Below are positions 22,164 through 44,207 of a DNA stretch of 64,000 nucleotides, one piece after another. How positions within the stretch are numbered: position 1 is the stretch's first letter; each line of letters begins with the position of its first letter. The stretch comes from an uncultured Nitrososphaerales archaeon (GTDB lineage Archaea; Thermoproteota; Nitrososphaeria; Nitrososphaerales; Nitrososphaeraceae). The stretch spans positions 160,001 to 224,000 of the forward strand of contig CAVQMO010000001.1 in assembly GCA_963713605.1 (NCBI GenBank). Direction: 5' to 3'. The notes under the pieces are model-generated. The model searched no databases. It saw only the letters and a list, made by a program, of their open reading frames with translations, and was not told the origin of the DNA. A program made the translations under genes and the position numbers.

Positions 22164-22508
22164 TATCCTGCCAGTCTATTATTTAAGTGGCCGACCACGA
22201 TGAAGTGTACAATTTGGATAATAATAACTGTCTACATGACATTCAATTACATTATTTATTAATGTGAGGCATAGTACGAAATACAGAGTATTTTGAAGGG
22301 ATAAATGGGGGCTATACCATCGAATGAAAGAAAGTCAGTCGATCAGGTTGTTATAGATCTTGGTGTTTCATCAGATTCACGAAGACTAGCAGACGAATAT
22401 GTAACAACTCGTAAATCTTACAGACTTACCACCGGAGCAAACGAACTAGTAATTACTGTGTGTTATGAGTTCTTGAGGTTTTGAATTAAAGAATGGGCTA
22501 TTGCTGGC

Positions 22509-22576
22509 GTTAACGGCTATTGTTAACTGTTAACAGGTGGTGCTAGCAGAATTTCTATCGAGTTGTTAACGTTAAC
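22509..22576. repeat. Cluster of five GTTAAC palindromes
   Basis: GTTAAC at 22509, 22522, 22529, 22565 and 22571. Confidence 0.8.
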
Positions 22577-22681
22577 AGATTTATGAGTCGTTCAATTAGA
22601 TTTCACGCTCAAGCACGTTAATGTTCAAAATGACCGTTCAGTAACGATTCTATCCCCAACCGATTTACCTTATGTACCTAT

Positions 22682-23380
22682 TTGCAAAAGTGTTCAAGAC
22701 GTTCAACAAGGTGTTCAATATTATATAGCACTATCACTCACCGACTTCCTGATAAGCTATCGGGTTTAGTTAATGAATTTGCACAGTATGGAGGACTGAA
22801 GTCTGCACGAGATATTGCAATGAGAAGATTGACATTAAATCATGCTCCAGACATTCCGTACATAGAGATTATTGAGCCCGATGAAGTTGTAACATGGGTA
22901 GATATGGATGGATCTGAAGAAGGGGTTCTAGCCTCCTCATGGCTGAATGATCATGAGGCAAGGGCTTGCACAAAAATTTGTAACCATTTGAGAACTTTAA
23001 CTAATAAATCAATAGTCGTAATTACTAGGTTTACAGGACAGAAAATGCAAATTAGAAATTATCTATCTGATATCAGGGTAACAACTACTACGGGAGCCTT
23101 GGGTACCCAATCAGATATAGTGATATTCTCGCTTGTCAGAAATAATCCTGAAAGAATAGTAGGGGAAGCAGGGACGCTTCAGGATCTCAATGTGGCCATT
23201 TCTCGATCCAAAGAAAAATTAATTATTTTGGGAAATTTTGAGATGATGCTTAATGGATAGTCAGGACATAATCAATATTATAATTATTGGCGCAAGAGTA
23301 GTTCGAGGCCTCTTGCGCGACTAATTGATTCAAAGTATGGGAGAGTAATTAACACTCCACCTGTTATAAGAAGTACTTAA
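22682..23380 (+). pseudogene. SF1 (Upf1/DNA2-like) helicase C-terminal domain fragment
   Basis: HRLP, NDHEA, VITRFTGQ, DIVIFSLVRNN, LNVAISRSKEKLIILGN; N-terminal ATPase domain absent; TAG at 23258 with the frame continuing to 23380. Confidence 0.7.
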
Positions 23381-23543
23381 TTTCATGTCTGAAGTTGTCA
23401 TAAAATGATGTAATGTTCATAATTTTTTATTTCAATTGAAAATTGATTCGCGTTTAGATAGGTCGATACCATTCTAAAAATGAAGCCTCACAAATTGATT
23501 CCTACATTGGACTGGCTCAATTAGTATTCATTCCAGGAAATCA

Positions 23544-23825
23544 TTGGGATCTTTGCCTTTTGGTCTAGTGGTGAAGTTAACAGAACCTCGCGAAGAGGGT
23601 GAACATGTCGTCATCCTAAATGGTACAGTAGTCATTAGTACAGAAGGAGCAGACGATTTAGATATGAATGAATTTCCACCTGTAGGAATAACTGTCGTTA
23701 CAACTAATGATACTATAACAGTAACGTATCACACAGTAACTATAGGTGGTGGCATAGGTAATCCTGGAAGTAACAATTGTGATGATGGAGGAGAAGATGA
23801 AGGTGATGAGGATGATGAGGAATAA
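23544..23825 (+). CDS. Hypothetical protein with acidic tail, possibly a fragment
   Basis: 93-aa ORF, beta-rich with D/E tail. Confidence 0.4.
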   Translation: MGSLPFGLVVKLTEPREEGEHVVILNGTVVISTEGADDLDMNEFPPVGITVVTTNDTITVTYHTVTIGGGIGNPGSNNCDDGGEDEGDEDDEE

Positions 23826-23929
23826 CTAGTATCTCTCACCATCTCGAAAGTAATAGGTAGCGACTACCTACGAGAACAAAAATTTGACAACCTTTAAAAC
23901 ATACCAAACATATAATATTAAATTAACAA

Positions 23930-24684
23930 ATGAGCAGTCCAACAACAGACTCCAATCCAGGCTTTATGGCTGAGTCAGAAGTGAAAGCTTTCATTAGCGG
24001 CATCGGCGATTCCAGAGTCAAGTTGTGGCTCGACGGGAAGCAAGATCTTGAGATAACTGGAGGAGAACCTTATTCTTATGATCGTTATGAAGACATAGCG
24101 AGTACGGGATACAATTCCGAAACCGTAATAGATGAATGATACAAATGGTACCTAAGAAGGGAGAATAATGGTACAAGCGAGTCTGAGAATTATACCTCTT
24201 TCGAAGATCCAACATCGCCATTTATTTACTTTGTTGAACCCATCCCCTTCCAGAGACCTCATTTTGAGAGAATCATTATTCGAGAAGAAGGGGCTTCACT
24301 TTTGATCCCTATTTACGCAATGTCTGTATCTACCCAGGAATACCCTTCGCTGAATTCTAATACAAGTTTACTTAATTTGATTAAGAAGGATTTATTCGGC
24401 ATTGAGTGGAATACTGTTAAGGCTACTTTTGATCGTACAGAATGTACGGCAGATGCGTGATCAGAAGCGATCCACTTCCCGTCGACGGGATCCCACCGAC
24501 CAATAGGATCGGAATACCTAAAGAGAGACTTAAAAATGGGGTCAGTGTAGATCTACTTCATGGGGGCTTTTGGCTTTTGATACGAGCAGACCGTATTGAC
24601 TCTGGTGACCACTTTCTATATGTTCGGGCCGACTCAAAGACGTATCAGAGTGAAGCTAAAATTCTAATTAACGCAATCAACTAA
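23930..24684 (+). pseudogene. Divergent signal-peptide-less member of the 'WWxW...DGYW' family
   Basis: Reads DE*YKWYLR through TGA 24137, then IYFVEP...LLIPIY...EYPSL...KKDL; frameshift ~24440; then HGGFWLLI...GDHFLYV. Confidence 0.6.
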
Positions 24685-24729
24685 TCTCAGAGAAAAACAT
24701 CCTTCACATAGTATTAAATTCCTAAGCAG

Positions 24730-25254
24730 TCAAACGAGTACGCATGGATGGCCAGTGGCTGACATAACTACTCTACCTTCCTGGTTAAGATGAAACACGT
24801 AATCCACAGATTCAAATTTTCCGGGTTCAGTCTCCCTAAACCCCAACGATAAATTGATGATTCTTCCCTGTATTTCCGTCTCCGTACATTCCTTAAACCT
24901 GAATCTTTTTTCTTCAGGAAAGATCCAACCAGCAACCGCCCGTTTGTGATCAGCTCCAGCATAGCATTCTAATGTTCCCATTACGAACTGATTTGACCTT
25001 GTCAAGACTTGCAGATCTCTAAGCTCACCTGCCAGTTTCAATAATCCTTCGTCATTACCAAAATTTGATCCTCCATCGAAACTAATGGACAGTCGTACGA
25101 ATCCGTCCTTAATGTATATAACCATAATTATATCGTTATTGACAGCATAAAAGCTTAACCGTTCTAAACCGCTACGGTCAAATTGGAATCCTCGACCTTC
25201 ACTCTGCACTGTGCTGCTCATACCTAATGAAGTTCCTCTGTAATTTATAAACAT
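24730..25254 (-). CDS. Hypothetical beta-rich protein with one Asp-box
   Basis: ISFDGGSNF (S-x-D-G-G-x-x-F); co-oriented downstream of the membrane gene. Confidence 0.65.
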   Translation of the reverse strand: MFINYRGTSLGMSSTVQSEGRGFQFDRSGLERLSFYAVNNDIIMVIYIKDGFVRLSISFDGGSNFGNDEGLLKLAGELRDLQVLTRSNQFVMGTLECYAGADHKRAVAGWIFPEEKRFRFKECTETEIQGRIINLSLGFRETEPGKFESVDYVFHLNQEGRVVMSATGHPCVLV

Positions 25255-25331
25255 TATTCACGCAAATTGATTTCATCAATTAGTTAGAAGCGAGGAGTCT
25301 CATTGCGACGCTACATAGGAACAGGCTGGCA

Positions 25332-26675
25332 TTATGAGTCGTCAACCTGCTTAACTTCCCTAATCACAAGATCAAGATATTTCTTTAGTTCTTCTCCGTC
25401 TAATTCCAAGTTTGTTCTAATGTCTGCCTCTATGACGTCCTTATCTTGCAAAATCTTACCTACTGTACGTTGAAGTTCTATATCCATCTCAGCCTGCCCT
25501 ATAAGACCTAAGAGCCTGGAATTCACGGCGTGTCTGTATATGGATTTACGTAAATCCGTATTCACTGCTACAAGTCTTGCGGAGTTGTAGATCCCAAATA
25601 ACATGAGGTATGTACCCAATATCAAGGCAGTACTGGTTGCCAGTCCAAATGGAGGAAATGGACCTAAACTTTGTGACACTGCTTGATTACAAGCGAACGT
25701 CAATAAGATTCCCCACCCAGAGATAATCATGCATGTCTGTATTTTTCGCTCATATCCTACTGTTTTTGATATCCTCCAAAATACTACGCCAAATGTTAAG
25801 CCTCCTATCGGTTTACTTAAAGAGAGAAAGGCTGTTAAAATGATAGAGACCGTGACTGGGTTCGTAGTTGGATATCCTGCGAGTAAATTCATAATGATAA
25901 ATTGGTAAGAGTAATCCACAAGAAAATAAACCAACGGCAGCGATAAAAGAGACCAGTAGGCAATAGAGCCTATTAGATTTTTGGCATAATTCTTCATTAG
26001 TGTCCCCGTAGCGATCCACAGACACAGGAATGCCGCGCCCGAAAATATAGAGTAAAGAATGCTTAGAGTCGAATAACGACCATAAGAGATGTCTATGCTG
26101 CCACCAATGTATATACGTATTTCACTTGGTCTATCGCTCAGATTAAGGGATGTGTACACTGCTGTCACAAGAAGGTTGACCGAGATCAGCGCCATTGAGA
26201 GAAAATAAAGAAAACTTACCAAATCACGATTAGATCTATACCACGAAAAGAACAGTCCCGCCAGAAACAATAGGAACACTGATGATGTTCCATAACTCAA
26301 GAGTATAATGGAAATAGAGATCGAGTTAGAATAATAACCAAGGTAATTTATTTGAATAATCAATATTCCGAAAGTAATTGCGAGAGCGGACAGTGAAATT
26401 AAGGTCATGATATTGAAGAAACTTACATTTAAGCCGCTACGACCTAGTTTATACTTTGTAAACAAATTTCGTAGATGGTAAATGATTAAGAACTGAAGTA
26501 GTAGACAGGTGCTGCTGATAATTGCGAATGCTATAACTCTAATCTGTTTAGAAATGAATTGCTTGTAAATAAGGTCATAGATCTTAACCAAAGATGTATC
26601 TATTAGTAAGACTGCAAAGAGGCAAATCATCAAGAACAAGAGCTTCTTATTTCTGCCATAACTCCGAAGTAACAA
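25332..26675 (-). CDS. Multi-pass (~10 TM) membrane protein of unknown function with charged C-terminal tail
   Basis: About 10 hydrophobic segments; LSKPIGG, PFPPFGL, IGQAEM, EELKKYLD shared with 37262-38622. Confidence 0.85.
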   Translation of the reverse strand: MLLRSYGRNKKLLFLMICLFAVLLIDTSLVKIYDLIYKQFISKQIRVIAFAIISSTCLLLQFLIIYHLRNLFTKYKLGRSGLNVSFFNIMTLISLSALAITFGILIIQINYLGYYSNSISISIILLSYGTSSVFLLFLAGLFFSWYRSNRDLVSFLYFLSMALISVNLLVTAVYTSLNLSDRPSEIRIYIGGSIDISYGRYSTLSILYSIFSGAAFLCLWIATGTLMKNYAKNLIGSIAYWSLLSLPLVYFLVDYSYQFIIMNLLAGYPTTNPVTVSIILTAFLSLSKPIGGLTFGVVFWRISKTVGYERKIQTCMIISGWGILLTFACNQAVSQSLGPFPPFGLATSTALILGTYLMLFGIYNSARLVAVNTDLRKSIYRHAVNSRLLGLIGQAEMDIELQRTVGKILQDKDVIEADIRTNLELDGEELKKYLDLVIREVKQVDDS

Positions 26676-26742
26676 TCAGCAATATTATTGGCATCAAGTT
26701 AAACATAATCTTTTTGTATTAGTAATATCTTCTAAAATCGAA

Positions 26743-27453
26743 TTGATATTAAGCATTATTGTAATTTTCTTATCACTACTAGCCTATACATTGGCGGTTT
26801 GGTTCGGAACTACATTTGCAAGTCCTGCTATCGAAATCCTTCCACCCCCACCTACAGAAAAACCTTATGGCATGTCTTACGAGCAACATGTTGAGAACTT
26901 TTATAATTGGCTTATATCACAACCGGCCGATTCCAATCCTTCTAATGATGTGACAGGAAAAGACTGCGCTAATGGACAGGAAAACTTTAATTCATCGGTG
27001 TTTTACCTGGTGGGTGCGGGCGGGGGTGAATTTACAAAAACGTGTGAAATCCCCGCTGGAAAAGCTGTCTTTATACCAGTGATGAGCGTAGAGGTTTCAG
27101 ACAAGGAGGTACCCTATGCATCGGTGGATGACTTACATAGATTGGCAAAGAAGGATCAGGATAGTGTAAATAGTATGGCTCTCAAGATAGGTAATAAAGA
27201 ATATTCTTTCGACGACCTTAAGAAGTATAGGGTTCATACCGGAGATTTTGAGGTTGTCTTTCCCGAGAATGCTATTTTTGGAGCTTCTCCTGGCCCATCC
27301 AAGGCGGTAGGAGACGGTTATCACGTGATAACAAACAAACTCCAAAAAGGAAATTATACGATTGACTACAGTGGAAGTCTTATCTGTCCAGGAAGCGACT
27401 GTCTGGCGCCTAATTTTGCGGAAGATGTAACGTTCAATCTTATAGTAAAATAA
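26743..27453 (+). CDS. Secreted protein of the 'WWxW...DGYW' family
   Basis: Signal peptide; PYGMSY...FYNWLIS.PADSNP, VFYLVG, CEIPAGKAVFIP, YRVHT, AVGDGY. Confidence 0.85.
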   Translation: MILSIIVIFLSLLAYTLAVWFGTTFASPAIEILPPPPTEKPYGMSYEQHVENFYNWLISQPADSNPSNDVTGKDCANGQENFNSSVFYLVGAGGGEFTKTCEIPAGKAVFIPVMSVEVSDKEVPYASVDDLHRLAKKDQDSVNSMALKIGNKEYSFDDLKKYRVHTGDFEVVFPENAIFGASPGPSKAVGDGYHVITNKLQKGNYTIDYSGSLICPGSDCLAPNFAEDVTFNLIVK

Positions 27454-27760
27454 GGCAGAATGGACCTGTGAATACGGTAAGGATGCCAAAAATAGGAGTC
27501 ACCCGAAACTGAGTATGTGCGGATAGGAATTTCCTAAGGGCATAGATTGTCTGTGATGGAAAGATCAATTGAAATCTGGTTCCATTGGTTCTACATATGC
27601 AAGTATTATAACTAATAAATAGCTATTTTAGGGGTTCCAAGAAGTTCAGTTTACGAATGATCCATGACCCGATAGTTAACACCCAAAAGCAGAACCCGTC
27701 AAGTTAACAAAGCCTAAGGCCATAAGGCTTAAATATGTCTCTAGCGATATTACTAGTGAT

Positions 27761-28265
27761 ATGTTATCGAATTGGATCTCAAGGGTGGGCAGCTTCGATC
27801 CCGCGTGGTTTCTCGAGACATTATGTATTAAATTTGCTTAAGGATGCTCCTATGACAGGGAAAGAAATTATTGACAGGGCAGTCCTCCAGAGCGACGGAA
27901 AATGGAGGCCTTCTCCTGGTCTAATCTATCCAATGCTAGGTAGGCTTCTAGAAGAAGGACTAATTGAAGAGGCAGAAAACGGTAGGTACAGAATAACTAT
28001 GAAGGGACTAGAAATGGCTTCGGACGTAGAATCGATAAATAACATAATACAAAAGCAGTTAGATGTTATGCTAAGATTCGGAAATGTAGGCAAATTCATG
28101 GCATTGGACCTCATTGATAGAGCTTCTGCCATAGGCACTGCTCTTAGCTCAAACTTAGATAAGATGACGGAACAGGAGAAGGGAAAATATCGAGAATTTC
28201 TCGTTTCCGAGCTCAAGAAACTGGATGACCAAGAACTCAAAGAGAGGAACCTCGAAATAGACTAA
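27761..28265 (+). CDS. PadR-family transcription regulator (probable +1 indel near 27794)
   Basis: WRPSPGLIYPMLGRLLEEGLI; MLSNWISRVGS from ATG 27761 joins SIPRGFSR after removing one T. Confidence 0.85.
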
Positions 28266-28529
28266 AATCAAATCTAGTTTACTTTTTTTGTTATCCCCAT
28301 TCACTGCACAATGCTGGGCTGTTAACCCATCATTCGTTGGTGGGTCAATGGCTAAAATATTCACCCGTTAAGAGCGGAAAACATTAAGAATCACTAATGT
28401 AGCACGCAGTGACAATGAATAGGAGAATTTAGTGACCTACGAATTAAAGATTCGTTACCTTTCAATAGTTCTCTCTAGGTATTATTGCCGTCAATATATC
28501 AAGCACTGGTTTGTTCCTGGTCTAGATTG

Positions 28530-29057
28530 TTAGAGGCTTCTCTTTTCATTCTGTTGCGTTGCTTCAAATACATATGATAGAATCTTTTGCAAGTTTACCT
28601 CATATGGTAAGGTAGTATCTACACTTAGATGCCGTCCCTGAACAGGTTCATATATGCTCTTCATTTTGCAATAAACTGAATAACCTGCATCAGAGAAGTC
28701 ATTTTTCCGATTTCTCAATCGCTCTAGCACCATGTCCTCCGGACAGGTGCATTCAATCACATACAGCTGCACATTATTTGAGCGAAGCTTGTTTTCGACT
28801 TCCGTTCTAGATCGTTCTCTGTTAAATGTTGCATCAAGAATACAGTTATTTCCAGCGGCGGTCAAATACTTAGTCAATAACATCAACACGTCGTATATTA
28901 AACGACCTTCAGCCCTTGTATAGGCGGGGTATTTTATTAGCTCTTTCCGTATCTTGTCGGAAGATAATATGCTAGCCCCTGTTCTGGAGGCTACTGACCT
29001 AGCGAGAGTCGTCTTACCTACTCCGGGCAAGCCACAAAGGAGAATAATTACAGGCAT
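28530..29057 (-). CDS. P-loop kinase (AAA_33-like)
   Basis: GLPGVGKT, SSDKIRKEL, ILDATF. Confidence 0.85.
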   Translation of the reverse strand: MPVIILLCGLPGVGKTTLARSVASRTGASILSSDKIRKELIKYPAYTRAEGRLIYDVLMLLTKYLTAAGNNCILDATFNRERSRTEVENKLRSNNVQLYVIECTCPEDMVLERLRNRKNDFSDAGYSVYCKMKSIYEPVQGRHLSVDTTLPYEVNLQKILSYVFEATQQNEKRSL

Positions 29058-29152
29058 CACAAACGCAATGGCATCAGCATACAGTCTTGAAAATTCGATC
29101 CAGCCCCAGTTGTGACCGGCTAACAACAATAAATCGGTCTTGCGAAGACACC

Positions 29153-29731
29153 CTACTTATTCTTATCATCAGGAAATATGTAATTGATAACCATGTCGAC
29201 GGCTTTATTCTTTAGTCTGTCTTTGTAGTATCCGATACCTTTTGTTGGTGTGTTCAGTGCTTTTTCTCTTGCGACACTATCTACTGGCCTGTGATCAGGA
29301 GCACCTTCAAATCTTATCTGATAATTTTTCATTTTTGAGAAAATGGCTGAATCATAAATATCCTTATGCCAAACCGATCCAACGAGGTACAGATACGGAG
29401 GGTTAGCCCGTTTTTTTATGAATTTAAGCACATAATCAAATGTTTGCTCGATGGTCTTAGGAGAATCAGTAAATAAGATTAGATCTTCTTTAATTCCACC
29501 TTCAATTAGCATCTTTTTTATGGCCAGTCCCGTGTTGGTGTCCACAATGACTAGTACTAGCGTATTGTTACGATCAGGCTTAGAAGTTGTTACAATACGA
29601 TACAAATCGACACATACTCTTACTCGCTCCTCAACATAGTTTGGAACAGTTTCAGTTTCGGTTGCCTCGCTCTCAGTATGTACACCAAAGAGAATAATGA
29701 GATTTCCATCTGTGAAGTGAGGCTGTGACAT
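29153..29731 (-). CDS. Hypothetical protein
   Basis: 192-aa ATG ORF upstream of the kinase. Confidence 0.7.
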   Translation of the reverse strand: MSQPHFTDGNLIILFGVHTESEATETETVPNYVEERVRVCVDLYRIVTTSKPDRNNTLVLVIVDTNTGLAIKKMLIEGGIKEDLILFTDSPKTIEQTFDYVLKFIKKRANPPYLYLVGSVWHKDIYDSAIFSKMKNYQIRFEGAPDHRPVDSVAREKALNTPTKGIGYYKDRLKNKAVDMVINYIFPDDKNK

Positions 29732-30593
29732 TCAATAGAACATCTACTAGTCGTCATTTATAGGTTGCCTCTTCTCCTTTGTATGCATGACAGAGTTACC
29801 AACCCCAGGATCTATATCATCATAGAAAACACTAGACTATCATGAACAAAAAAATATTGTTTGCTGACAAATAATTTATGATTCTCTGAATGAATGGTCA
29901 TTCTGATAACTAGCATTGGAAATTGAAGTAGTTTCGAGCATAGCGTATCGGATCTTTCGGGAAAAGGATAACAAAGTCAATTCGAAATCTAGCTAAATAT
30001 ACTTACCTCCTCCTTGGGATACTGCATAAACTATCTTAGAGGTACCGATTCTTAGTAAATCTACCTGTCTTTGACGAATAGTCTGAAATATAATTTTTGG
30101 GCACCATCCGCCCGTTAAATCCAGTTATCTAGAAAAAATTATCCGTTGTACCATTAAAAAGCAGATACAAAACATATTGTACTAGTTACTACTACTACCA
30201 CACCTCCGTTCTTGTTTGAGGAATTTAACCAACCAAAAGTAAGTATAGTTCTTAATTTCACGCTGATAAACCTAAGAATTGCAAATTAGTTTGTTCTCGA
30301 CAAAAGATACTGGTTTACTATCTGTTATTTATCTAATAAATACACAAGGGGTATGCAAATATTAGATCCGCGGAATTTCCTCGTTTTTAGTAATATGAAT
30401 AGATTCGATTCTTGGATCCGTATTGGCGTATCCCGATCATTAATCTGAATCAATAAAATAACAAATCTTAGGTTATAATCTTTAATTACCCATGTTTTTA
30501 CTAGTTGATACTAGGATTCGTACCTATTTTATTTTTAGATGATGCTGTAGTCCTCCATAAATATATTGCATGAATATAGTTTAGGGAATTGCA

Positions 30594-30864
30594 GTGAAGA
30601 ATAGGGCTAGAAATGACATTATTGCGATGATCCTGAGAAGCTGCTCAAGGCAGAGGGACAAGTAAAACGAAGATCATGTTTAAGGCTTATCTATCAACCA
30701 ATCAATTAAGGGAATATCTTGCAGAATTATTGGATAATGGGCTTGTTAAATATGATGAAGATAGAAAAACATATCAGATAACTCACAAAGGAGAAAGGTA
30801 TCTGGAACTTTATAGTGGTATGGAAAGAATGATACCAATGGACAACATGAAAGTTGAAGAATAA
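30594..30864 (+). CDS. Winged-helix regulator with a +1 frameshift near 30636
   Basis: VKNRARNDIIAMIL / EAAQGRGTSKTKIMFKAYLSTNQLREYL...YQITHKG; paralog of 19943-20239. Confidence 0.75.
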
Positions 30865-31381
30865 AACAGATCGGTGTGACATTTTACTGCTGAGGTACGA
30901 CAAAAGAAGTCAAGAAACAATATATATGTAGTAACGATCATTGCAATAATATCACGACGGTTATGAAAATTGTTACGGAATTAATTTTATGAATGAAATT
31001 TACTCTTTTAACCTTTTCTACAAATTATCTCTCGAAGTAGAGAATAGAGATATCTAGACTGTTACTCATTGTAACGGTCTTGGAGGGTGTAAGAAGAAAT
31101 CTTGGTATACGCATTTTTTTAGAAACATGAAATTTTCTTCAAAAGTATTTGTAGGGTCATTATTAAGAGGAAGTTGAAGCAATACAATTAATGTATTGTT
31201 ATTACTAATTTTCGTAGATAAAATAGGTTAGTATTATTACCGGAGTAGGATATCTTTTATTGATGGTAATAGTCAGCAATTTTTTCAATGGAAAGTTTTA
31301 TCTCCAACCTGACATGTTTTTCCTTTAAAATGATACGTTTTTATTAGATGTTCGCTGGGGTAATATTGGTAGGTCTTAGAA

Positions 31382-31687
31382 ATAGGCAAAAGGAAAGTAC
31401 TGAGCGAGTCTCATTTGAAGGAATTAGTCCTCCCACAGGATGGACAATTGCTGGGCAGGGTTATTAAGCTTGTAGGGGGAGACAATGTGGTTGTCAAGTG
31501 CACAGATGGAGAAGTAAGGGTATGTCGTATTAGTGGAAAAATAAAGAGAAGAATGTGGATTAGAGATAATGATGTTGTGTTGGTAGCTCCATGGGATTTT
31601 CAATCGTCCAAAGCAGATGTTGTATGGAGGTATATTAGAGCACACGCGGAGAAATTACAGCAGGATGGTTATCTTAATAATGTTTGA
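31382..31687 (+). CDS. eif1a: Translation initiation factor 1A (aIF-1A)
   Basis: GRVIKLVGG, RISGKIKRRMWIRDNDVVLVAPWDFQ; N-terminus GKRKVLSE follows ATA at 31382. Confidence 0.92.
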   Translation: MGKRKVLSESHLKELVLPQDGQLLGRVIKLVGGDNVVVKCTDGEVRVCRISGKIKRRMWIRDNDVVLVAPWDFQSSKADVVWRYIRAHAEKLQQDGYLNNV

Positions 31688-32118
31688 GATTATGGCAGAA
31701 TAATCTGTGTAAATAACGCATAAGTCACTAGGGTTTAATTTTGACAGAATTTCTCGGCAAAATGTGCATGCCTCTTTATATCCAAACCTTTCAAATCTCT
31801 GGTGGCAATCTGCATTCAAGAATTTTTGGGGTTTGATTCTGAACAGGATTTTTAGAATTTTTGGGTTCGTTTAATTAATACGTTTACCTAATGTGATTAA
31901 CTTAAGTACTATTAGTTCGGTTTTGAATCTGCAACCCAATGACTTAATGTTGATTATTATGATTACCTGTAAAAGGATGACTCTTTCGAACTAGGTGGGC
32001 AATTGTGTTCTACTTTTGATTGCTTCAAGAGTATCATATATAATCATATTTTTACAATCCCTGGGTCAGCATCAATTATATTCTTGTACGTACCTTGATT
32101 CCTTAATCTCATAATATT

Positions 32119-32718
32119 ATGAAGCTCACCAAAGCTAGGAAAGATCAATATCGGAAGTTAGCAAAACAGGAAGGATATCGTAGTCGGGCTGCGTTTAAAC
32201 TCCTTCAGCTCAACAAGTCTCACAAGATACTCAAGAAATCTGATAGAGTGGTAGAATTTGGTTGCGCCCCAGGAGGGTGGATTCAGGTAGTTAGTCAACT
32301 AGTCGGTCAATCCGGTTTTGTTTTGGGATTGGATCTAAAGGAAATTAGTCCGTTGGCGGGTACGAGATTTATCAAGGGAAGTATAGAAGATCCGCAACTG
32401 ACACAAATTCTTCTCCAGACTATCGGCCCTGGTAACAAATTTGATGTAGTACTTAGTGACATGTCACCTAACGTAAGTGGAATTTGGGAGGTTGATCATG
32501 AAAGACAAATTTCTCTTACTAAACATGCCCTACATGTCTCCACAAAAATCCTTGAAAGTGGTGGAAATGCTGTTTATAAGATTTTTCAAGGTGTTTCAAC
32601 ACGATCCTTTGTAGAGGAACTTGCTATACACTTCACTTTAGTAAAGCTTAGCAAGCCTCCAGCCAGCAGACAGGAAAGCAGTGAACTTTACGTAATATGT
32701 CTTGGCTTTAAAGAGTAA
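32119..32718 (+). CDS. rlmE: 23S rRNA U2552 2'-O-methyltransferase (FtsJ/RlmE)
   Basis: GYRSRAAFKL, GCAPGGW, VLSDMSPNVSG, KPPASRQESSE. Confidence 0.92.
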   Translation: MKLTKARKDQYRKLAKQEGYRSRAAFKLLQLNKSHKILKKSDRVVEFGCAPGGWIQVVSQLVGQSGFVLGLDLKEISPLAGTRFIKGSIEDPQLTQILLQTIGPGNKFDVVLSDMSPNVSGIWEVDHERQISLTKHALHVSTKILESGGNAVYKIFQGVSTRSFVEELAIHFTLVKLSKPPASRQESSELYVICLGFKE

Positions 32719-32761
32719 ACTGGTTCAAGTTCGCTTCCATATGGAACTTAGTGTTGTAACA

Positions 32762-33484
32762 TCAGCAGCCGTATCGTATGCCTGTACTGCATCTACCAGA
32801 AGTAATATGATACGATATACACCCATCATCCTTGATTTTCAGGTTTTGCATCGAAACGGGGTATGAGGCCCTTGAGCCATCGTCATTAGGCAGCAAGGCG
32901 CTATAAGGATAAAAGGTAGTCGAATATTCATCGGAGGAATTATCGCTAAGTCCAAACAATAACTGGGAAACTTCTACTTCATACTTTATTGGATACGGTG
33001 AATTCCTCATTTTATTCCACCATTCTATTCCTGTGAATTGTCTTGAGCCTTGAAAATTAAACCCCGCGACATTCTTTGCAGAGAGGTCGTAGATTTCATT
33101 TTGTCCATTGTTTTTATCTGTCAACGCATATCTGATTGTTTGTTTTTTGGAATCAAGAAATATCTGGCGATTGTAGGTGTGCCCGATAACTGGAAGAACG
33201 TGCACGAACCTATACTGATTAACCCCTCGAAATATCGCTTCAAAATAGTCTTGACCATCGAATTGGCAGATTAGGTTTAGCTCCAATGCGATGCCTTGAT
33301 TGTTAAAAATTTCTAAGAGATAGAGCATCCATGATTTGTCAGGAATGTTATTCGCCATTTCATTAACGATTGTAATTCTGTCTGCTACAGATATCACTCC
33401 CAAAGGGAAGAAGGATCTGACCTTCTTAGGATTGCTCTTCTCGCTATCCGTGACAAGACAATGTGAACCTACCCAGTAATGCAT
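32762..33484 (-). CDS. Hypothetical beta-rich protein
   Basis: 240-aa ATG ORF. Confidence 0.7.
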   Translation of the reverse strand: MHYWVGSHCLVTDSEKSNPKKVRSFFPLGVISVADRITIVNEMANNIPDKSWMLYLLEIFNNQGIALELNLICQFDGQDYFEAIFRGVNQYRFVHVLPVIGHTYNRQIFLDSKKQTIRYALTDKNNGQNEIYDLSAKNVAGFNFQGSRQFTGIEWWNKMRNSPYPIKYEVEVSQLLFGLSDNSSDEYSTTFYPYSALLPNDDGSRASYPVSMQNLKIKDDGCISYHITSGRCSTGIRYGC

Positions 33485-33760
33485 TCCATATTACTAGTAA
33501 TTTATGTTATTTAATCTACCTACTTTATCCGACGTCATAAAACAATAATCTATACCAATGTCAACATTATTCGAAGCTTATGCAATTAGCAAAGTGATCG
33601 AAAATTAATTCAGTCATAAGTTTAAGAATATAACTATGAATAAGCATTTCTTATTAGGCCAATAAGATAATCAGTGGATCGCTGGCAATGGCAATGTTAT
33701 TGTTACTCTAAGTTTGTCGATGTGTGCTTGTGGTCAGGTGAAGGATAGCGCTATACATGT

Positions 33761-34312
33761 CTATTTCTTTAGAAAGGATCCTAATTCTTTCATTCGTCCA
33801 GCCAGAAATCCCAATAAACAACCGTAGATAATATGAAATACCAATGAACCACCAATAATAACTGGAAACAACGATTGGAAGTGACTGGCAATATCATAGA
33901 TGTATTGATTTGGTGCCGAGTTGGAAAGCGAGTCAAGTCGAGGCTGTATTCCAAATGTGGTAACTGGAACAAATAATATTGCCCATAAAACGACTCCTAC
34001 TATTAGTCCAGTAATTATCCCATGATGATAGTCGTATGGCGCTATCCATCTCCAAAATGTTGATGCTTGTCCAAATATGTTTCCTGCTATGGTACCAGTT
34101 AACAAGTGAAAGCTAAATCCTACATATTGTGCAACTATCGGATCGTTAAAACCTAACGATATTCCGATCACAGCAAAGAATGTTCCAGGAGGAGTTCCTG
34201 AGATAAGGTCAACAACAACGAGGAGTCCTGAGATGGCCCATACAGCTATAAATCCCGCAAGTGTACAGTATGGAATATAGGCTCTTTGATCTACTCGCCA
34301 GCTCGCTTTCAA
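33761..34312 (-). CDS. Four-TM membrane protein
   Basis: Hydrophobic helices with His (FHLLTG, FHIIYG). Confidence 0.75.
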   Translation of the reverse strand: MKASWRVDQRAYIPYCTLAGFIAVWAISGLLVVVDLISGTPPGTFFAVIGISLGFNDPIVAQYVGFSFHLLTGTIAGNIFGQASTFWRWIAPYDYHHGIITGLIVGVVLWAILFVPVTTFGIQPRLDSLSNSAPNQYIYDIASHFQSLFPVIIGGSLVFHIIYGCLLGFLAGRMKELGSFLKK

Positions 34313-34511
34313 CCCTTCTCGTTAATCGTATTGCAGTGTTTGAGTATTTAAAGAATGCCCGATAATTGGAGCGCAACATCATTTTTAACCATGCAGGATA
34401 CACACATAAAAGCCCCGTAACTCGATCCTTAGAGTAAATTACACAGCCCGATGCTCAATAAGTCGACACTAAAGTAATCTGTCTTATAACAACTCTGTAA
34501 GCCCCCAAATT

Positions 34512-34534
34512 AGGCGCGGGGTGTGGGATTCGAA
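34512..34534 (-). repeat. att-like copy of the tRNA-Ser 3' end
   Basis: AGGCGCGGGGTGTGGGATTCGAA versus AGGCGCGGGGAGTGGGATTCGAA at 48096-48118 (22/23). Confidence 0.85.
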
Positions 34535-34900
34535 TCCCTTAGCCAAAGATGGGGATTCCATCTGATTCTGTATATTGCCAGAATGCTTTATCCCACTCCG
34601 TTTGCGAACGCCATACCCTTGCAATCAACGTCAAACATTGGTTACTGCATTTACGCATAGGCTCTTCAAGCGTTTGATTGAGTCACGGCTTATTATCCGT
34701 ATTTTTCCCCCAGATCAGACATAATTTCAACAAATTAGAGTAGAAAGGAAAATCTTATAAATTGCGGTCTTGTACGTGACAATCATGAACAATCTATTCA
34801 GTTTGCTAATAAACCTTGGAAGCCGGAGGATATCAGTGTGTACGAACAAACGCATTCCAGCTCATCCGGATTGCGGCCATAACTAAGGTGTTATCCTAAA

Positions 34901-35640
34901 TTGAGTATTCAAAGGTACGGATTATGGGACGACATTCTGGGCCATAGCTATGGTTTTTGGTCAAGACAATGGTTGAAATGGGCTATATCTCCTCCTGTGA
35001 GCGGTGTTGTGAATGAGCATCCGCTGAAGGAATTTGATACGGGGGCTCACGTCGTAGTTCACGGAACACTTCCTGCAGGTGAAAATTCAGATAGAGTATC
35101 TTTTTCGGTGGATATTGGGAAGGTGACGAAGGTGAGCCAGCGCTTGATAATATCATTAAAGGCGGATATTATTTTAATCAAGCTAGAATATTTCGCAAAG
35201 TCGAGGACTTTCCAGGTAACGTTCCAATTCTCATCAATGCAGTATCCTCTGCAATTTCTCCAGAAGAGCATCCCGATGCTTTCGGACGAGCACTTTCCCT
35301 TGAAGACATTGAATATGCGGGCAAAAAATGTAATAGACCAATCTTATTCTGCGGTAAAGATTAAGTCCCCCAATGGTGAAATGCATGAATTTCATTCTAA
35401 TAAAGGAACACTCGATCGGGTTAGATACCCTGTTCATAATCCAACTGTAAGGGCAGGTATGTGGCATCACTTTGGAGAGAATAAGGAGATACACGCCGCC
35501 TAGATGGTTATTGGCTATTCCTGCGTGGATTAGAACCAGATAAGTCATCCCCATATACAATACAAATTGACTCTTACTCGCCTTTTTTTGATGTGTACTC
35601 ACGCTCACAATAGTCCGCATGATCCCTTTCAGGTTCATGT
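34901..35640 (+). pseudogene. Signal-peptide-less 'WWxW...DGYW' family protein, frameshifted
   Basis: GHSYGFWSRQWLKWAIS...HP; after a shift at ~35501 DGYWLFLRGLEP; end approximate. Confidence 0.6.
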
Positions 35641-35683
35641 CACATACGAGCTTTATGTGCCTCAATCATGAATTGGAATTAGA

Positions 35684-36328
35684 TTGTTTCAGGAGAATTT
35701 TAATCAATACGAACGCTCTCTATTCTACTGCCGCAAGGAGCATCCATTTGGAGTCTCGTGGGAGGAATGGTGCTGCAGGTGGTGGAAATGGGCACTATCC
35801 ATTCCTAGGGAATCGAACCCAGGGATAGATAGCACTGGCGAAAAATATTTCCTAAATCCGCAATGGGAATCAGTGATATTTCTTGTAGGCACGTTTGGCG
35901 GTAGGGCTCAACGCTCCTATAAGATACCCGGAGGAAAATCAATTTTCTTGCCTATTATTAATTTCGAGACTTCCTTTAATGAAGAACCATATTTGCAGAG
36001 TGAGGAAGACTTGTTGAGTAGAGTGAGACGCGATATCGATGACATTATTCGTAGGGAGCTGATAATCGATGGAAATAGAGTTGTTAACTTGGATGCCTTC
36101 CGGATCACTACCGATGTGTTTGATCTAATCCTTCCTGAGGATAATGTATTTGGAGTTAAGCCTGGATTCACGCGTGCTGCTTCGGACGGTTACTGGGCCT
36201 TTCTCAAACCCCTTCCGTTGGGCCAGCATACAATTCGAGCTTCCGGTGCATGTTCATCCGGAAAAACTACCGTCGATATCACTTGGCAAATAACCGTAGA
36301 ACAGGATCAGACATCAAACTACCGATAA
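35684..36328 (+). CDS. Signal-peptide-less 'WWxW...DGYW' family protein
   Basis: PFGVSWEEWCCRWWKWALSIPRESNP, FLVGTFGG, IPGGKSIFLPIIN, AASDGYWAFLKPLPLGQHTI. Confidence 0.85.
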   Translation: MFQENFNQYERSLFYCRKEHPFGVSWEEWCCRWWKWALSIPRESNPGIDSTGEKYFLNPQWESVIFLVGTFGGRAQRSYKIPGGKSIFLPIINFETSFNEEPYLQSEEDLLSRVRRDIDDIIRRELIIDGNRVVNLDAFRITTDVFDLILPEDNVFGVKPGFTRAASDGYWAFLKPLPLGQHTIRASGACSSGKTTVDITWQITVEQDQTSNYR

Positions 36329-36390
36329 ACGATAATGATGGAAACTTGGAATTCAGGTTTCCTGGCATACGTAATAAAATGTATTTTCCT

Positions 36391-37172
36391 CTAGGGGCGT
36401 ACGGTAAGATGGTACCTGCCATCTTGTGCGAATGTATTTGGACCGGTTGCAGTGACGTCTACGCTAGTGCCCTTAAAATGAATTTCATGCTTCCCTGGAG
36501 GTAGCGGCTTTAGAAATACATACTGTCCATTACCTGCTCCTTCGTAACTCTCCTGCGTCGACGCCAAATATGTTATTCTCTGGTAGAGTAAAGTTAAACA
36601 CAGGTGTAGCTACACGATAACTTTCAACAGGTCTCCCATCCACACTGGCTTCCATTTGGGTAACTTTGTCTTGGAAGTCTTTCGCGCATTCAATCATATC
36701 CTCCTTAGTACTTAAATTAGGAAATTCGGCTGGTGAACAAAAGGAATTGAGAATCGGAAAGAATAGTGATGCATTCGAAGGAACAGGTACAAGCTCTTTC
36801 AACAGATCCAGCAAATGTACCTGCTAGAAACCAGACTGGTCCCTGCTGTTTTTGAGCACAATAATCTCCTGTCGTATCTATTACAGGATTCGTACTTTCA
36901 GGAATTGAATACGCCCAGAGCCACCATAATTCCCCCCATTTACCGTAACTGTTTCCAAAGGGTTCAGACGATTGGGGATATACTTGGGGACCGGCAACAA
37001 CACCACTTTCGTTTTGACCCATTGCAATGGTATCTGGGGTCATTGTGAATAATGGCGCCGAGACGCACAAGAGTGTAACAAGTAAAAGTCTACTTAAATC
37101 AGGATCCGTCCATGCTAGTATCAAAGCTCGCCTGTCAAGGATGGGATGGGTTTCTATTATATAAATTCTCAC
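36391..37172 (-). CDS. Secreted 'WWxW...DGYW' family protein with two +1 frameshifts
   Basis: Hydrophobic leader, PFGNSYGKWGELWWLWAYSIP, WFLAGT / VPSNASLFFPILN...YRV / GNGQYVFLKPLPPGKHEIHF; stop at 36391. Confidence 0.75.
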
Positions 37173-37261
37173 ATTCTATTTCAATTCGGCAAAAAGATTA
37201 TTAATTATTGTGCCATCTTGAACTATAGAGGTCGGTTCATGATGCGACGGACGACTGGAAA

Positions 37262-38622
37262 ATGTATTTGCTAGATAGATTGTTTGAGGACCGGTGCATC
37301 TACGCTTCTTTTATAATATTGTTAGCTGTTTTATTCGTTGATGTTTCTCTCATAAAAATCTTGAATCTGCTTTTTGTCCAAAGTGATAATTTTTGGCGGG
37401 TAAATCTCTTCTCGACGATATCAATATTGTATGTTGTACTGATGGTGTTCATCATTACTGGTAGTCTTAAAAATGGCTGGTGGTCAGCAGTGAAGATTGG
37501 AAGTAAGAATATGCAAAAGCCACTGATAATAACTCAACCTGTCCTACTATCACTCATAGCTATAGTATTAATGCAATTGCTATCTCTCCATCACTACGGT
37601 ACAATCCTCCTAATTATTATTATTGCTACTAGCTACGTTTTGGGGATTTATATTTTGGTTGTTCTTACTAGGCACTTTGTAATTTGGTCCAAATCTAACA
37701 GGACTAACAAAGTCGTCTTAGGGTACAGTGTTTCCTTCATAGTGATCTCTGCAAACCTAATCTTAACTCTGAGCGTTGTAATGATGGCTTCTTTTGGCTG
37801 GAGTTCTACTTCTCCTTCATTTATTGGAACCACTGCCATATACATTAAAAGCGGTTCCCCTCTCTGAGCTAGTAACTTTTGCTGAATTAGTCACCTCGAT
37901 AATTGCGTTTGGAATTACATGGTAATCAACCACTCTACTCCTGTCTAACTATTCGGAAAAGATCGGGAAGAAGTCATACTGGATATTCCTTTCCATTCCG
38001 TTGGCATATTTTATGGGTCAGTATATTGTTTTCTATTTCAGTTTATTTACGCCTCTGTTTACAATTGATCCGTTTTTCTATGGGACGCTCATAACTTTGC
38101 TCTTTGCTCTGAGTAAACCAGTCGGAGGAATCCTTTTTGGCATAAGCTTTCTGGACTGTAGCAAAAAAAATACCGTCTAGCTATAGAGAACGGAGGTATC
38201 TACTCATTTCAGCCTTTGGTTTTATTCTATTGTTCGTGTCCAGTCAGGCTATCCTGTTAATAAATATCCCATTTCCACCTTTCGGTTTGATTGCATCTTC
38301 TACAATAGGATTTGCATGTTACTTAGTTTCGGTGGGCATTTACTCCTCGGCGATCTCAGTAGCCCATGACGCATCATTACGACAACGTGTTAGAAAAATG
38401 GCAACTCCAGGACTTAACTTTCTGGACAGCATTGGAACCGCTGAAATGCAAAGTTATCTTGAGCAAAGAGTTGTTGAACTGGTGGAACGAAATAGAGATA
38501 TTTTGGAGGAAGGAACCAGGGATGAGTCCGACCTGAGTGATGAAGAAATAAAGAAATATGTTGAGGAGGTCCTGGGAGAAGTTAAGGCCAGCAGAGAGCG
38601 TAAAGAAGGAAAAGGATGGTGA
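37262..38622 (+). pseudogene. Multi-pass membrane protein, paralog of 25332-26675, disrupted
   Basis: Frameshifts ~37860 and ~38148, in-frame TAA 37923; LSKPVGG, PFPPFGL, IGTAEM, EEIKKYVEEV. Confidence 0.8.
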
Positions 38623-38855
38623 GCGACAATAAATGCAATATGCAATGTGGACATGTAACTTCTTCTATAGTCGATTTGAGGATTCCTGTTCTCTTCTTGA
38701 GCTCCGTAATATCGGGAATATGATCTCCACGAGTCTTTATCCAAGTGAACCTCACCTCCAGTGGTACCGTTTTGAATATGGTCTAGGTCCTAATGCTAAA
38801 AGGCTATGGGAAAAATAGAGATGCCAAGGCCTTGTACCTGCTCTTGAATGAATAA

Positions 38856-39059
38856 CTATGAAAAGAAAGTTTGTTGAAAGCGCTTCAGTAAGAGCCCTAG
38901 GGTAATTTTACTGCAATTGGAGTCATAACTGTATGACCATGAAAATAGTGCAGGATCCATGATAATCTTTCGTATAATATCCGAATCTTCAACAAAATCA
39001 GGTACCGCCGGCAGTATCATTGTCTCAGTAAACTTTGCAATCATACCTAAACTAGTCAA
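38856..39059 (-). pseudogene. Possible MFS transporter N-terminal fragment
   Basis: FTETMILPAVPDFVED resembles the first helix of archaeal MFS proteins; then degenerates. Confidence 0.3.
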
Positions 39060-39278
39060 GATTGCATGATATCCGTGGGGAGGAAGAAAAGACGAGTATA
39101 CTGATCTGCCTTTTCACAATCCTACTTGCTTATCTTTTCTCAATATCATAATTACTATTCATTTATTTGTTCCACACTAGGAAAATGAGTGTGTGAATAT
39201 CATAATTATGAATTAAAAGTAATTAAATTGGAACTAGAAATAATAATAGGGAATGGAAAGAGGCATCGACATAACTGT

Positions 39279-41076
39279 ATGAGACCAGTTTTGCTTACCG
39301 TGGATGATAATCCGCAGGTGGTTCAAGCTATTAAGCGGGATTTAAGGCATCAATATGGCAAGCGCTTTCGTATTCTTAAAGCTGAATCTGGTCAAAAAGC
39401 TCTTGAATTAGTGAAGCAATTGAAACTGCGAAATGAGACCGTGGCATTGCTCTTGGTAGACCAGCGGATGCCTCAGATGTCTGGAGTAGAATTACTGGAG
39501 CAGTCTATTGACATTTTTCCAGAGGCTAAGCGCGTGTTACTTACGGCGTATGCAGATACTGAGGCTGCAATAAGATCTATCAACAAAGCCAAAATTGATT
39601 ACTACCTAATGAAACCGTGGGACCCTCCTGAAGAACATTTGTATCCAGTACTCGATGATTTATTAGACGATTGGTGGGCTTCTTTTAAGCCTCCATATGA
39701 GGGCATCAAGGTTATAGGAATAAGATGGTCGCCAAGATCATATGAAGTAAAACACTTTCTAGCGAGAAATGGTATACCTTATCAATGGCTAGATATAGAA
39801 TCTGATGAAGGTCGCCATTTGGTTTCTTTTGTCGCTTCGACTAGTAAGGGAGAGGAATCTGGTCAAATTTCCAACACCTCCATTTCTGATATTAATCATA
39901 ACCAGCATGAAAACGACACTGATAATACAGCGTCCTTGATTAGATCACCTTCATTAACACTGTTGCCTTCTTCCTTAAAACTGCCACTTGTTATCTTTCC
40001 TGATGGCTCATATATGGATGAGCCATCTAATTCAGGGCTTGCAGAAAAAATTGGTCTAAAGACTCAAGCACAGATGCCTTTCTATGATTTGATAATAATA
40101 GGAGCAGGACCAGCCGGATTGGCGGCAGCAGTATATGGCGCGTCAGAGGGTCTCAGGTACATTAATAATTGAAAGACAAGCACCGGGCGGACAGGCAGCC
40201 ATGAGCTCTAATATTGAAAATTACCTCGGCTTTCCTTCTGGTCTAACTGGCAGCAATCTCGCTAGACGGGCGGTTGCGCAAGCAATCCGATTTGGCGTTG
40301 AGATTTTGACCCCCCAGGAAGTTATGGGTTTACGAATCGATGGCCCATATAGAATAGTTCAATTAAAGGATGGTAAAGAGATAAGTTGCCATGCCCTTCT
40401 TATTGCGTGTGGGGTATCGTATCGTAAGTTAGAAGATATAAAGGGAATAGATAAACTAACTGGAGCTGGTGTATATTACGGTGCCTCTATGGTAGAGGCG
40501 TTATCGTCTCAGAATGAAGATGTCTATATGGTTGGAGGGGCAAACTCTGCAGGTCAGAGGGCAGTTCATTTTTCTAAATATGCGAGAACAGTAACACTTG
40601 TAGTTCGTGGAGATTCTTTAACCAAAAGTATGTCATACTATCTTGTTAATCAAATAAATAGGACATCTAACATAAAAGTATTATTAAACTCAAAAGTTGT
40701 GGAAGTACAGGGCGGAGATCGGCTTCAATTCGTTACCATATTAAATACCCACACAGGAGAGCAGCATACTGTGGATTGTTCCGTGCTCTACATATTTATT
40801 GGTGCCGTACCACATACGGATGCTCTTGCTGGATTAGTAGAACGAGATGCAAATGGCTTTATATTGACAGGTCAGGATTTAATACAGGAGGATGGGCATA
40901 AACGTCCTAGGGGCTGGTACCTGGATCGGTCCCCATTTTTACTTGAGACAAACTTGCCTGGTATATTTGCTGCTGGAGATGTGCGTCATGGCTCTACGAA
41001 AAGAGTGGCTACAGGTGTTGGGGAAGGGTCTCTAGCTGTTCAACTAATACATCAATACCTAAAGAGCGTCAAATGA
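39279..41076 (+). CDS. Receiver domain-thioredoxin reductase-like FAD oxidoreductase fusion (+1 frameshift ~40157)
   Basis: LTVDD...VDQRMPQMSG...LLTAY...KPW receiver; IGAGPAG, GGANSAGQ, IFAAGDVR. Confidence 0.85.
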
Positions 41077-44186: not shown

Positions 44187-44207
44187 ATCATCATCATCAT
44201 CATCATC
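44187..44207. repeat. (ATC)7 microsatellite
   Basis: Direct reading of the sequence. Confidence 0.8.

Follow-up and report, generated by a model that had tools for sequence, protein, structure and literature searches.

Soil ammonia-oxidising archaea carry many copies of an undescribed, mostly divergent gene pair for a membrane sensor-domain protein and a predicted secreted partner

Introduction

The Nitrososphaeraceae are the main ammonia-oxidising archaea of soils, and their sensing is almost uncharted. We analysed a 64,000-nucleotide (nt) stretch of the genome of an uncultured member of this family in the order Nitrososphaerales (GenBank assembly GCA_963713605.1, contig CAVQMO010000001.1, positions 160,001 to 224,000 of the forward strand; hereafter the window), in which the genes for a polytopic membrane protein, M, and for a small partner protein, S, stand head to head. 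An earlier examination of the same letters, the sequence-only reading, had described two copies of this pair as a candidate sensing module. As detailed below, soil ammonia-oxidising archaea carry many copies of this undescribed M–S cassette, which lies in the movable part of their genomes.

Results

M and S genes in the window

The window contains two M–S pairs and a third S gene, as follows.

25332–26675 (−): M1, intact open reading frame (ORF) of 447 amino acids (aa), stand-alone membrane sensor-domain protein with ten predicted transmembrane helices
26743–27453 (+): S1, intact ORF of 236 aa, putatively secreted partner with a predicted beta-sandwich fold and an N-terminal signal peptide
35684–36328 (+): S3, a third S gene, intact but lacking a signal peptide, in an island integrated at tRNA-Ser
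36391–37172 (−): S2, S-family pseudogene with pieces in three frames
37262–38622 (+): M2, M-family pseudogene spread over three frames and interrupted by in-frame TGA and TAA stops

M1 and S1 are divergent and both whole, with 67 nt between their start codons, just as the sequence-only reading had given them in coordinates, strands and orientation. For the second pair, that reading had the right place but took M2 and S2 for an intact, functional copy, and the frameshifts and stops in both genes had gone unnoticed. S2 can be read only with two frame changes, and its homology by tblastn, from 36451 to 36980, is spread over the three different frames. The first frame of M2 is open from 37262 up to a TGA at 37865–37867, the second contains an in-frame TAA and two more stops, and the end of the gene lies in the third, with tblastn homology falling in separate frames between 37905 and 38586. 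The similarity of M1 to the M2 pieces (E 7e-30) and of S1 or S3 to the S2 pieces (E 1e-13 to 8e-26) is far above chance. The motifs listed in the earlier examination are present in both copies of each protein, namely LSKP[IV]GG, PFPPFGL, IG[QT]AEM and E[LI]KKY..V..EVK in M, and P[FY]GxSY..W..W.S.P...NP..D.TG..C, [WF][FY]L[AV]G, YRV and a late GY/GQY in S. S3 shares 32% identity with S1 (E 6e-32), and it is the source of the WWxW and DGYW strings that headed that examination.

Since in-frame TAA and TGA stops are present and stop-ridden M copies like M2 also occur in related genomes, we favour real decay over assembly error as the probable origin of the lesions in pair 2. Some assembly error is possible, because a nearby gene, for a receiver domain (REC) fused to a thioredoxin reductase, is also frameshifted near 40150. 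In a third M–S locus of the same genome (C1:900621–905986), the M gene is broken by TGA and TAG stops and the S gene divergent to it (902197–902964) is intact; two further S paralogues follow at 904095 and 905381.

M as an input domain of histidine kinases

M1, S1 and S3 were scanned against Pfam and NCBIfam without a match, and 51 M and 29 S members scanned singly in Pfam-A at E values up to 1 matched no family. The sequence-only reading had recognised no kinase, cyclase or transporter motif in either protein, and the scans of Pfam, NCBIfam, PADLOC and PHROGs assigned neither of them to a family. A search with M returned 1146 matches at E ≤0.001, 211 of them at ≤1e-30, in a representative library at 50% identity, and 837 matches among 7999 scored candidates in 90% clusters; no name other than "hypothetical protein" occurred among the 120 matches listed. 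In the protein atlas, M falls within unnamed clusters that are 100% archaeal, with Nitrososphaerota as the commonest taxon; of the named clusters, HisKA_7TM comes nearest, with a weak score (0.82). When a strict E of 1e-90 or better was required, 15 of the 24 other genomes from the family contained M, as did 13 of 18 genera with the window's own counted, and M was not found in five genomes (92–99% complete) from five other families of the order. M is restricted to the Nitrososphaeraceae among the genomes searched. The genome of the window has 23 M loci, only eight of which keep at least 360 of the 447 model positions within one ORF. The literature searched yielded no description of the M or the S family, including a census of archaeal two-component systems (PMC5847659) whose supplementary tables could list kinases with an M domain.

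The AlphaFold2 model of M1 (predicted local distance difference test (pLDDT) 86.8, predicted template-modelling score 0.86) crosses the membrane with ten helices, contains two short half-helices besides and ends in a helical tail that begins near residue 373; it agrees with the hydropathy profile on the number of helices, about ten, that had been read from the letters. The Lys/Arg-rich loops alternate according to the positive-inside rule, which predicts by hydropathy that both termini face the cytoplasm, and the conserved tail of about 85 residues would lie there, as the kinase fusions described below require. With this topology, the two most conserved motifs of M, LSKPxGG and PYPPFGL, are placed at the outer face of the membrane. 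A Foldseek search of the model against the PDB gave no match at E 0.001 or better. In an exhaustive structural comparison, seven-helix rhodopsins and G-protein-coupled receptors ranked top (Z 8–12.3), the best neighbour reaching Z 12.3 with a root-mean-square deviation of 4.2 Å over 225 aligned residues; this is below the caution level of about 13 for helical bundles, under which a Z score means no more than a common helical arrangement. Solved structures of HisKA_7TM, MASE and 7TMR-DISM domains did not surface in the fold searches.

The label "receptor-like" in the sequence-only reading gains substance from the longer homologues, in which the same domain is the N-terminal module of HisKA plus HATPase_c kinases. 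In the length class of 784–2235 aa, HisKA and HATPase_c follow a complete M domain, tail included, in all six M homologues found (914–1030 aa). The window's own genome encodes two such fusions (C5:15942–19098 and C5:87252–90354), each split by a frame break, and ORFs of 888–1071 aa with this architecture occur in all five relatives compared, one or more per genome; a Pfam scan of two of these ORFs detected HisKA and HATPase_c in both. One kinase, P0355 (999 aa), is nested in the S-associated M1 clade (a set of 21 rows with support 100), and it is 65% identical to an S-paired M. Since P0355 sits within the M1 orthologue clade, the kinase-fused and stand-alone forms interconvert across short evolutionary distances. 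Intermediate forms were also seen, in which only the first half of the middle region of about 320 aa is attached to M, and the genome encodes many M-less kinases that have the same middle region and HisKA/HATPase_c as the fusions. HisKA and HATPase_c were not found in M1, the M2 pieces or any of the 51 stand-alone members. By sequence, M1 is best described as a kinase-less relative of a kinase input domain, not as a kinase.

S as a predicted exported protein

S has 84 close homologues. Of 12 genomes of the same genus, 11 contain S, the richest with 40 matches, and it is absent from eight sampled genomes of other families. Distant relatives with 22–35% identity are found in many bacterial phyla and in two euryarchaea. 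An N-terminal hydrophobic segment is present in 23 of 29 S members, usually followed by a cleavage-like site of small residues; S thus appears to be exported with a Sec-type signal peptide, which supports the secreted nature ascribed to it earlier. The AlphaFold2 model of S1 (pLDDT 92.1) predicts a signal helix and one amphipathic helix, followed by a beta sandwich of eight to ten strands. Fold searches returned generic immunoglobulin (Ig)-like and inhibitor-like sandwiches, with template-modelling scores of 0.2–0.4 in Foldseek and a VIA-wide best Z of 6.4. The Venus-flytrap fold is absent from the match lists, which hold Ig-like sandwiches only, and a family missing from such lists is not thereby excluded. 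Around the bacterial S genes, 38 neighbouring proteins were scanned and proved heterogeneous, with no shared theme.

Recurrent pairing and co-divergence of M and S

We fetched 62 loci around S relatives, 30 from Nitrososphaerales/Thermoproteota and 32 from bacteria or euryarchaea. M was found to adjoin the central S in 22 of the 30 former loci, divergently in 21 of them, and in none of the 32 latter. A test of adjacency across the order had been suggested on the basis of the letters, and its outcome is a recurrent, mostly divergent pair. Among the 23 M loci of the window's genome, three are divergent with S and one is convergent. Five same-genus genomes hold 46 M loci, and S adjoins 11 of them, which is a minimum given the many contigs that stop nearby. 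Nine strict M matches were obtained in five genomes from other genera, and S adjoins five of these matches, four divergently and one convergently, the convergent pair involving a kinase-fused M; divergent pairs thus occur in three other genera and the convergent pair in a fourth. The M–S pairing is real, recurrent and mostly divergent.

On an M tree of 55 rows, the divergent-S label requires five changes, versus a mean of 18.7 for shuffled labels (0/500 shuffles as low), and one supported clade of 22 rows, which holds most kinase fusions together with stand-alone members, has no S neighbour. M and S distances correlate over 29 pairs with a Mantel r of 0.96 (0/2000 permutations as high), a value that is trivial for orthologues. 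For ten deep-paralogue representatives, r is 0.64 (18/5000 permutations as high). The co-phylogeny proposed as a check in the sequence-only reading therefore holds at the level of deep paralogues, where the partners appear to have stayed together through old duplications. No third gene is conserved with the pair: none of ten genes flanking it in the window (PadR, a 174-aa downstream ORF and others) recurs beside orthologous pairs, and 44 neighbours of M loci in relatives have no common family.

Several neighbours were observed at individual M or S loci. A YcaO cyclodehydratase gene lies inside M/S clusters at three loci of other genomes (L072:1871–3244, L079:2489–3889 and L024:2504–4007), and a gene for a DyP-type peroxidase stands directly 3′ of M in L072 and in pair 3 of the window's own genome (C1:899086–900438); neither neighbour is universal among M/S loci. 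A gene for a ParA/MinD-like ATPase stands directly 3′ of two related, S-less M paralogues (L074:3376–4110 and L095:1680–2496).

A conserved element between the divergent genes

An alignment of 18 orthologous M1/S1 intergenic regions delineated a short element, whose core recurs at pair 2.

26701–26719 (strand not assigned): 19-nt element AAACATAATCTTTTTGTAT between M1 and S1
37190–37201 (−): 12-nt core ATAATCTTTTTG upstream of S2, in the same orientation relative to S as at pair 1

The 19-nt element is almost invariant over the 18 loci, although the proteins are only about 50% identical. It stands 25 nt from the start codon of M1 and 23 nt from that of S1. Its position matrix scores at least 24 upstream of S in the 18 loci, versus a 99th percentile of 7.0 for random genomic positions. 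Since the genome holds a single exact copy and matches with three mismatches are at control level, the element is not a regulon motif. The 12-nt core has four exact copies in the 4.09-Mb genome, and two of these lie between M and S, one at pair 1 and one at pair 2; the reversed control pattern occurs six times, counted irrespective of position. From its position and conservation, the 19-nt element could be a compact bidirectional archaeal core promoter that yields near-leaderless transcripts, and an operator may overlap it.

Both pairs lie in insertions

Comparison with three relatives, with which the window is otherwise collinear at 73–98% protein identity, delimited two extra blocks.

22176–27725 (no strand): insertion 1, about 4.3–5.3 kb of extra sequence with a helicase fragment, small ORFs and pair 1
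34504–48121 (no strand): island 2, a 13.6-kb insertion at tRNA-Ser with 34-nt direct repeats at both ends

Insertion 1 is flanked by a bPH_3 gene and a PadR gene, which are neighbours in relatives; they are 1232 bp apart in genome G003 and 215 bp in G001, versus 5.5 kb here. Six ORFs of the window in 22634–27450, including M1 and S1, have no match at the syntenic loci of G003, G001 and G010, and the M1/S1 orthologue of one collinear relative sits on another contig. At island 2, the repeat copies (34504–34537 and 48088–48121) are identical at 30 of 34 positions, and the second overlaps the 3′ end of tRNA-Ser (48097–48182, −). The island contains S3, pair 2, the REC–thioredoxin-reductase gene, a histidine kinase that binds cyclic nucleoside monophosphates (cNMP) and a repeat protein. 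The distance from FtsJ to NirDL is 17.2 kb here, versus 3.5–5.5 kb in all five relatives that have both on one contig, and 11 ORFs in 34883–47463 have no match at the syntenic loci of three relatives. The repeat of the tRNA-Ser 3′ end and the absence of the segment from the syntenic site in three relatives support the tRNA-integrated island of the sequence-only reading, and the mobility it surmised from one copy has the greater support that both pairs lie in insertions missing from relatives. Base composition is unremarkable, and scans of the island 2 ORFs in Pfam and PHROGs detected no integrase or recombinase family. The M–S cassette appears to duplicate, relocate and decay as a unit in the flexible genome.

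Other genes of the two blocks were recorded as follows. In insertion 1, the ORF at 22682–23260 (+) is a C-terminal fragment of an AAA_12 helicase, like the ends of Mokosh MkoA/MkoC (E 1.5e-20), and a close homologue stands beside two other M paralogues in a relative (L073:3725–4498). In island 2, the gene at 39189–41076 (+) fuses a receiver domain to a thioredoxin-reductase-like oxidoreductase, with one frame break near 40150, and the cNMP-binding histidine kinase (41167–42753) lies 3′ of it. Such REC–thioredoxin-reductase regulators are mentioned for metagenomic archaea in the text of the archaeal census (PMC5847659). The 550-aa product of the ORF at 44342–45994 (+) has a hydrophobic segment at its N-terminus and contains six tandem repeats of 51 aa (153 nt), NLSNN...SIAASGNNVYVVW...YRRSTSGGA; only weak matches of this protein to a domain of unknown function and to PHROGs were found. 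At the left end of the island, a 200-aa ORF (34901–35503, +) has an N-terminus weakly like the W-rich motif of S (tblastn E 0.14) and no family match in library scans. Two paralogous small ORFs, 47743–48030 (−) and 43009–43248 (−), have a common 86-nt repeat (84% identical) and no family match; one of them abuts the tRNA-Ser end of the island, and a homologous fragment occurs at the same site in G010. We might guess that the small ORFs of the island, including a 95-aa ORF beside the tRNA, are integrase remnants, but this guess has no support.

Predicted complex of M1 and S1

M1 and residues 30–236 of S1, both with alignments, were submitted to complex prediction in one job. The score was 0.60 (runs 0.58, 0.61 and 0.60) versus 0.02 for the best of three controls, with a contact agreement of at least 90% between runs and a partner pLDDT of at least 81, and the tool returned the verdict "weak support". 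In the calibration of the score, 116 of 157 solved complexes attained the mark, as did two of 215 mismatched pairs; at scores of 0.60 or below, 18 of the 157 solved complexes reach it, together with both passing mismatches.

Discussion

A possible sensor and co-sensor

Our proposal, to which we give an even chance of being right, is that the M–S cassette consists of a kinase-less membrane sensor and a secreted co-sensor that share a promoter and spread and decay as a two-gene cassette. In this proposal, M would be a Nitrososphaeraceae-specific input domain embedded in the membrane, with ten helices and both ends in the cytoplasm. A stand-alone M would pass its signal on through the tail, and a plausible recipient is one of the many kinases of the genome that lack a membrane segment and have the same core as the fusions. 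S may dock on the outer face of its cognate M as a co-sensor that captures a ligand or has a modulating role, much like the periplasmic binding proteins of some bacterial sensor kinases, and the 67-nt region at pair 1 would be a compact bidirectional promoter yielding two nearly leaderless, co-regulated transcripts. Pair 1 is a copy carried by a small insertion, and pair 2 a decayed copy inside the tRNA-Ser-integrated island.

Several observations weigh against this proposal. M1 has neither a kinase nor any other recognisable output domain in family scans, and fusion to a kinase does not exclude transport, since the membrane domains of transporters also occur fused to kinases. S is not a general requirement of the M domain, because most M paralogues have no S neighbour (19 of 23 in the window's own genome, 35 of the 46 in relatives); M occurs without S in one complete genome, and the outer-face motifs of M are also kept in clades without S. 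Linkage alone yields co-divergence, by which contact is therefore not proven. The generic Ig-like fold of S and its unrelated bacterial neighbours offer no pointer to a ligand. Finally, the M1–S1 score lies in a range where passes are more often wrong than right unless the prior is good; because the genomic prior is independent, we take the score, as weak support from a model, for a modest rise in the odds of contact.

In a more far-reaching version of the proposal, which we regard as rather unlikely, the cassette would belong to a three-piece, mix-and-match receptor: S would capture a variable cue and dock on M, the tail of M would recruit a soluble kinase, and new specificities would arise through cassette duplication and horizontal movement on small integrated elements. 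If this is true, soil ammonia oxidisers would have a mobile, rapidly evolving sensory repertoire.

Alternative explanations

The fate of S without M bears on a first alternative, in which S is a regulated output. M and a relay would control the divergent S gene, and S would act alone outside the cell, without contact to M, where it might for instance mediate adhesion, inhibit an enzyme or capture nutrients. Bacterial S indeed lives without M, several S copies cluster without it, and the nearest fold matches of S, weak as they are, are secreted inhibitor-like or Ig-like sandwiches; the 67-nt control region with its invariant 19-nt element would also fit autoregulated divergent units. However, M lacks a DNA-binding domain, the genes next to the pair include no conserved regulator, the one-to-one linkage of M and S has been stable through at least ten deep duplications, and the complex score, though weak, is separated from the controls. 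We consider this explanation unlikely.

M might otherwise be a transporter, flippase or membrane enzyme, with the kinase fusions as "transceptor" derivatives and S as an extracellular subunit that binds or delivers the substrate. The 51 M members matched no transporter family in Pfam-A up to E 1, the neighbourhood of M lacks a conserved gene for an ATPase or a second permease, and S appears from its predicted secondary structure not to be of the Venus-flytrap type; the best structural neighbours of M are seven-helix receptors and rhodopsins, though their Z of 12.3 is below the meaningful level. These results leave transport by M quite unlikely, even though its ten-helix polytopic build, the Pro/Gly-rich motifs at helix ends and a membrane-embedded Asp (D26) would all suit a transporter, a neighbouring secreted partner is typical of uptake systems, and transporter-like domains are known as kinase inputs.

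A shade more doubtful still is a diversifying surface recognition or conflict module that undergoes birth and death on mobile DNA and does not sense abiotic signals; it might recognise kin or self, serve viruses as a receptor or mislead them as a decoy, or join a surface ligand to its membrane receptor. Copy numbers are high and vary within one genus (0 to 40 S matches and 9 to 26 M per genome), many copies are decayed (8 of 23 M loci are near-complete here, and relatives also have copies full of stops), each pair of the window is part of an insertion, tRNA-integrated in one case, the flanks are never conserved, and insertion 1 carries a Mokosh-like helicase fragment. Against this, neither protein matched a PADLOC, toxin, nuclease or immunity family, so that the toxin/immunity-type pair offered among the options of the sequence-only reading found no backing. 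M1, S1 and S3 had no family in PADLOC, Pfam, NCBIfam or PHROGs, libraries that an undescribed defence system could escape. The kinase fusions suggest ordinary signalling, and since orthologous M1/S1 pairs and the invariant element are kept in many genomes, selection on the M1/S1 lineage would be purifying rather than diversifying.

Mere co-carriage on mobile segments, with no functional link, might be suspected from the two insertions and from multi-S clusters with or without M, but it is very improbable and disfavoured, since the head-to-head arrangement with a gap of about 0–250 nt recurs in at least ten deep paralogue lineages and at least four other genera while other neighbours change, and the S label is strongly clustered on the M tree.

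Implications of the sensor and co-sensor proposal

If M is indeed a sensor with S as its co-sensor, the pair bears on the question of how membrane-less archaeal kinases receive outside signals; such kinases, without a membrane segment, make up 62% of archaeal kinases according to the text of the archaeal census (PMC5847659). M, which is far more often alone than kinase-fused, would be a concrete candidate for the missing membrane input, and S a candidate extracellular specificity factor. Because the cassette rides on insertions, one of them tRNA-integrated, sensory capacity in the Nitrososphaeraceae may be exchanged horizontally. The compact pair, the complete genomes in the family that carry the M–S system and the sharply defined 19-nt element together provide a testable system.

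Comparison with known systems

Among mobile elements, island 2 resembles the cryptic elements of thaumarchaea in its size of 13.6 kb, its insertion at the 3′ end of a tRNA gene and the direct repeat of that end. In the text of Krupovic et al. 2019 (PMC6563490), 39 of 68 thaumarchaeal elements use tRNA genes, nearly all of them the 3′ part, the cryptic elements are mostly smaller than 20 kb, and the median repeat length is 17 bp. In contrast, the island 2 repeat is longer, at 34 nt, and imperfect (30/34), and the island has no recognisable integrase and a decayed look.

Among kinase sensors, M can be compared with HisKA_7TM, MASE and 7TMR-DISM, of which HisKA_7TM (PF16927) is named as an archaeal kinase sensor in the text of the census (PMC5847659). 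Like these, M is a polytopic, all-helical N-terminal module before HisKA/HATPase_c, with stand-alone forms and lineage-specific expansions, and its structural neighbours (Z 8–12.3) might suggest a common seven-helix-like core. M differs in having ten helices instead of seven or eight, motifs of its own, a conserved tail, a dedicated secreted partner gene and a distribution restricted to the Nitrososphaeraceae among the genomes searched. The HisKA_7TM, MASE and 7TMR-DISM profiles matched none of the 51 M members at E up to 1, and by sequence M appears to be a member neither of these families nor of the LuxP/LuxQ type.

The closest analogy for the pair as a whole is with the binding-protein-dependent sensor kinases of bacteria, such as LuxP/LuxQ, TorT/TorS and ChvE/VirA. 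Unlike in these, the accessory protein S is predicted to be an all-beta sandwich of an unnamed family instead of a Venus-flytrap, the sensor has ten helices embedded in the membrane and almost no extracellular domain, the kinase is missing in most copies, and the genes are divergent, not operonic. The layout is common to both: the gene for an exported accessory protein neighbours that for a membrane sensor, which feeds, or in the case of M would feed, a histidine-kinase pathway. In the LuxP/LuxQ type, the accessory protein probably presents the signal at the outer face of the sensor, and S may do the same for M.

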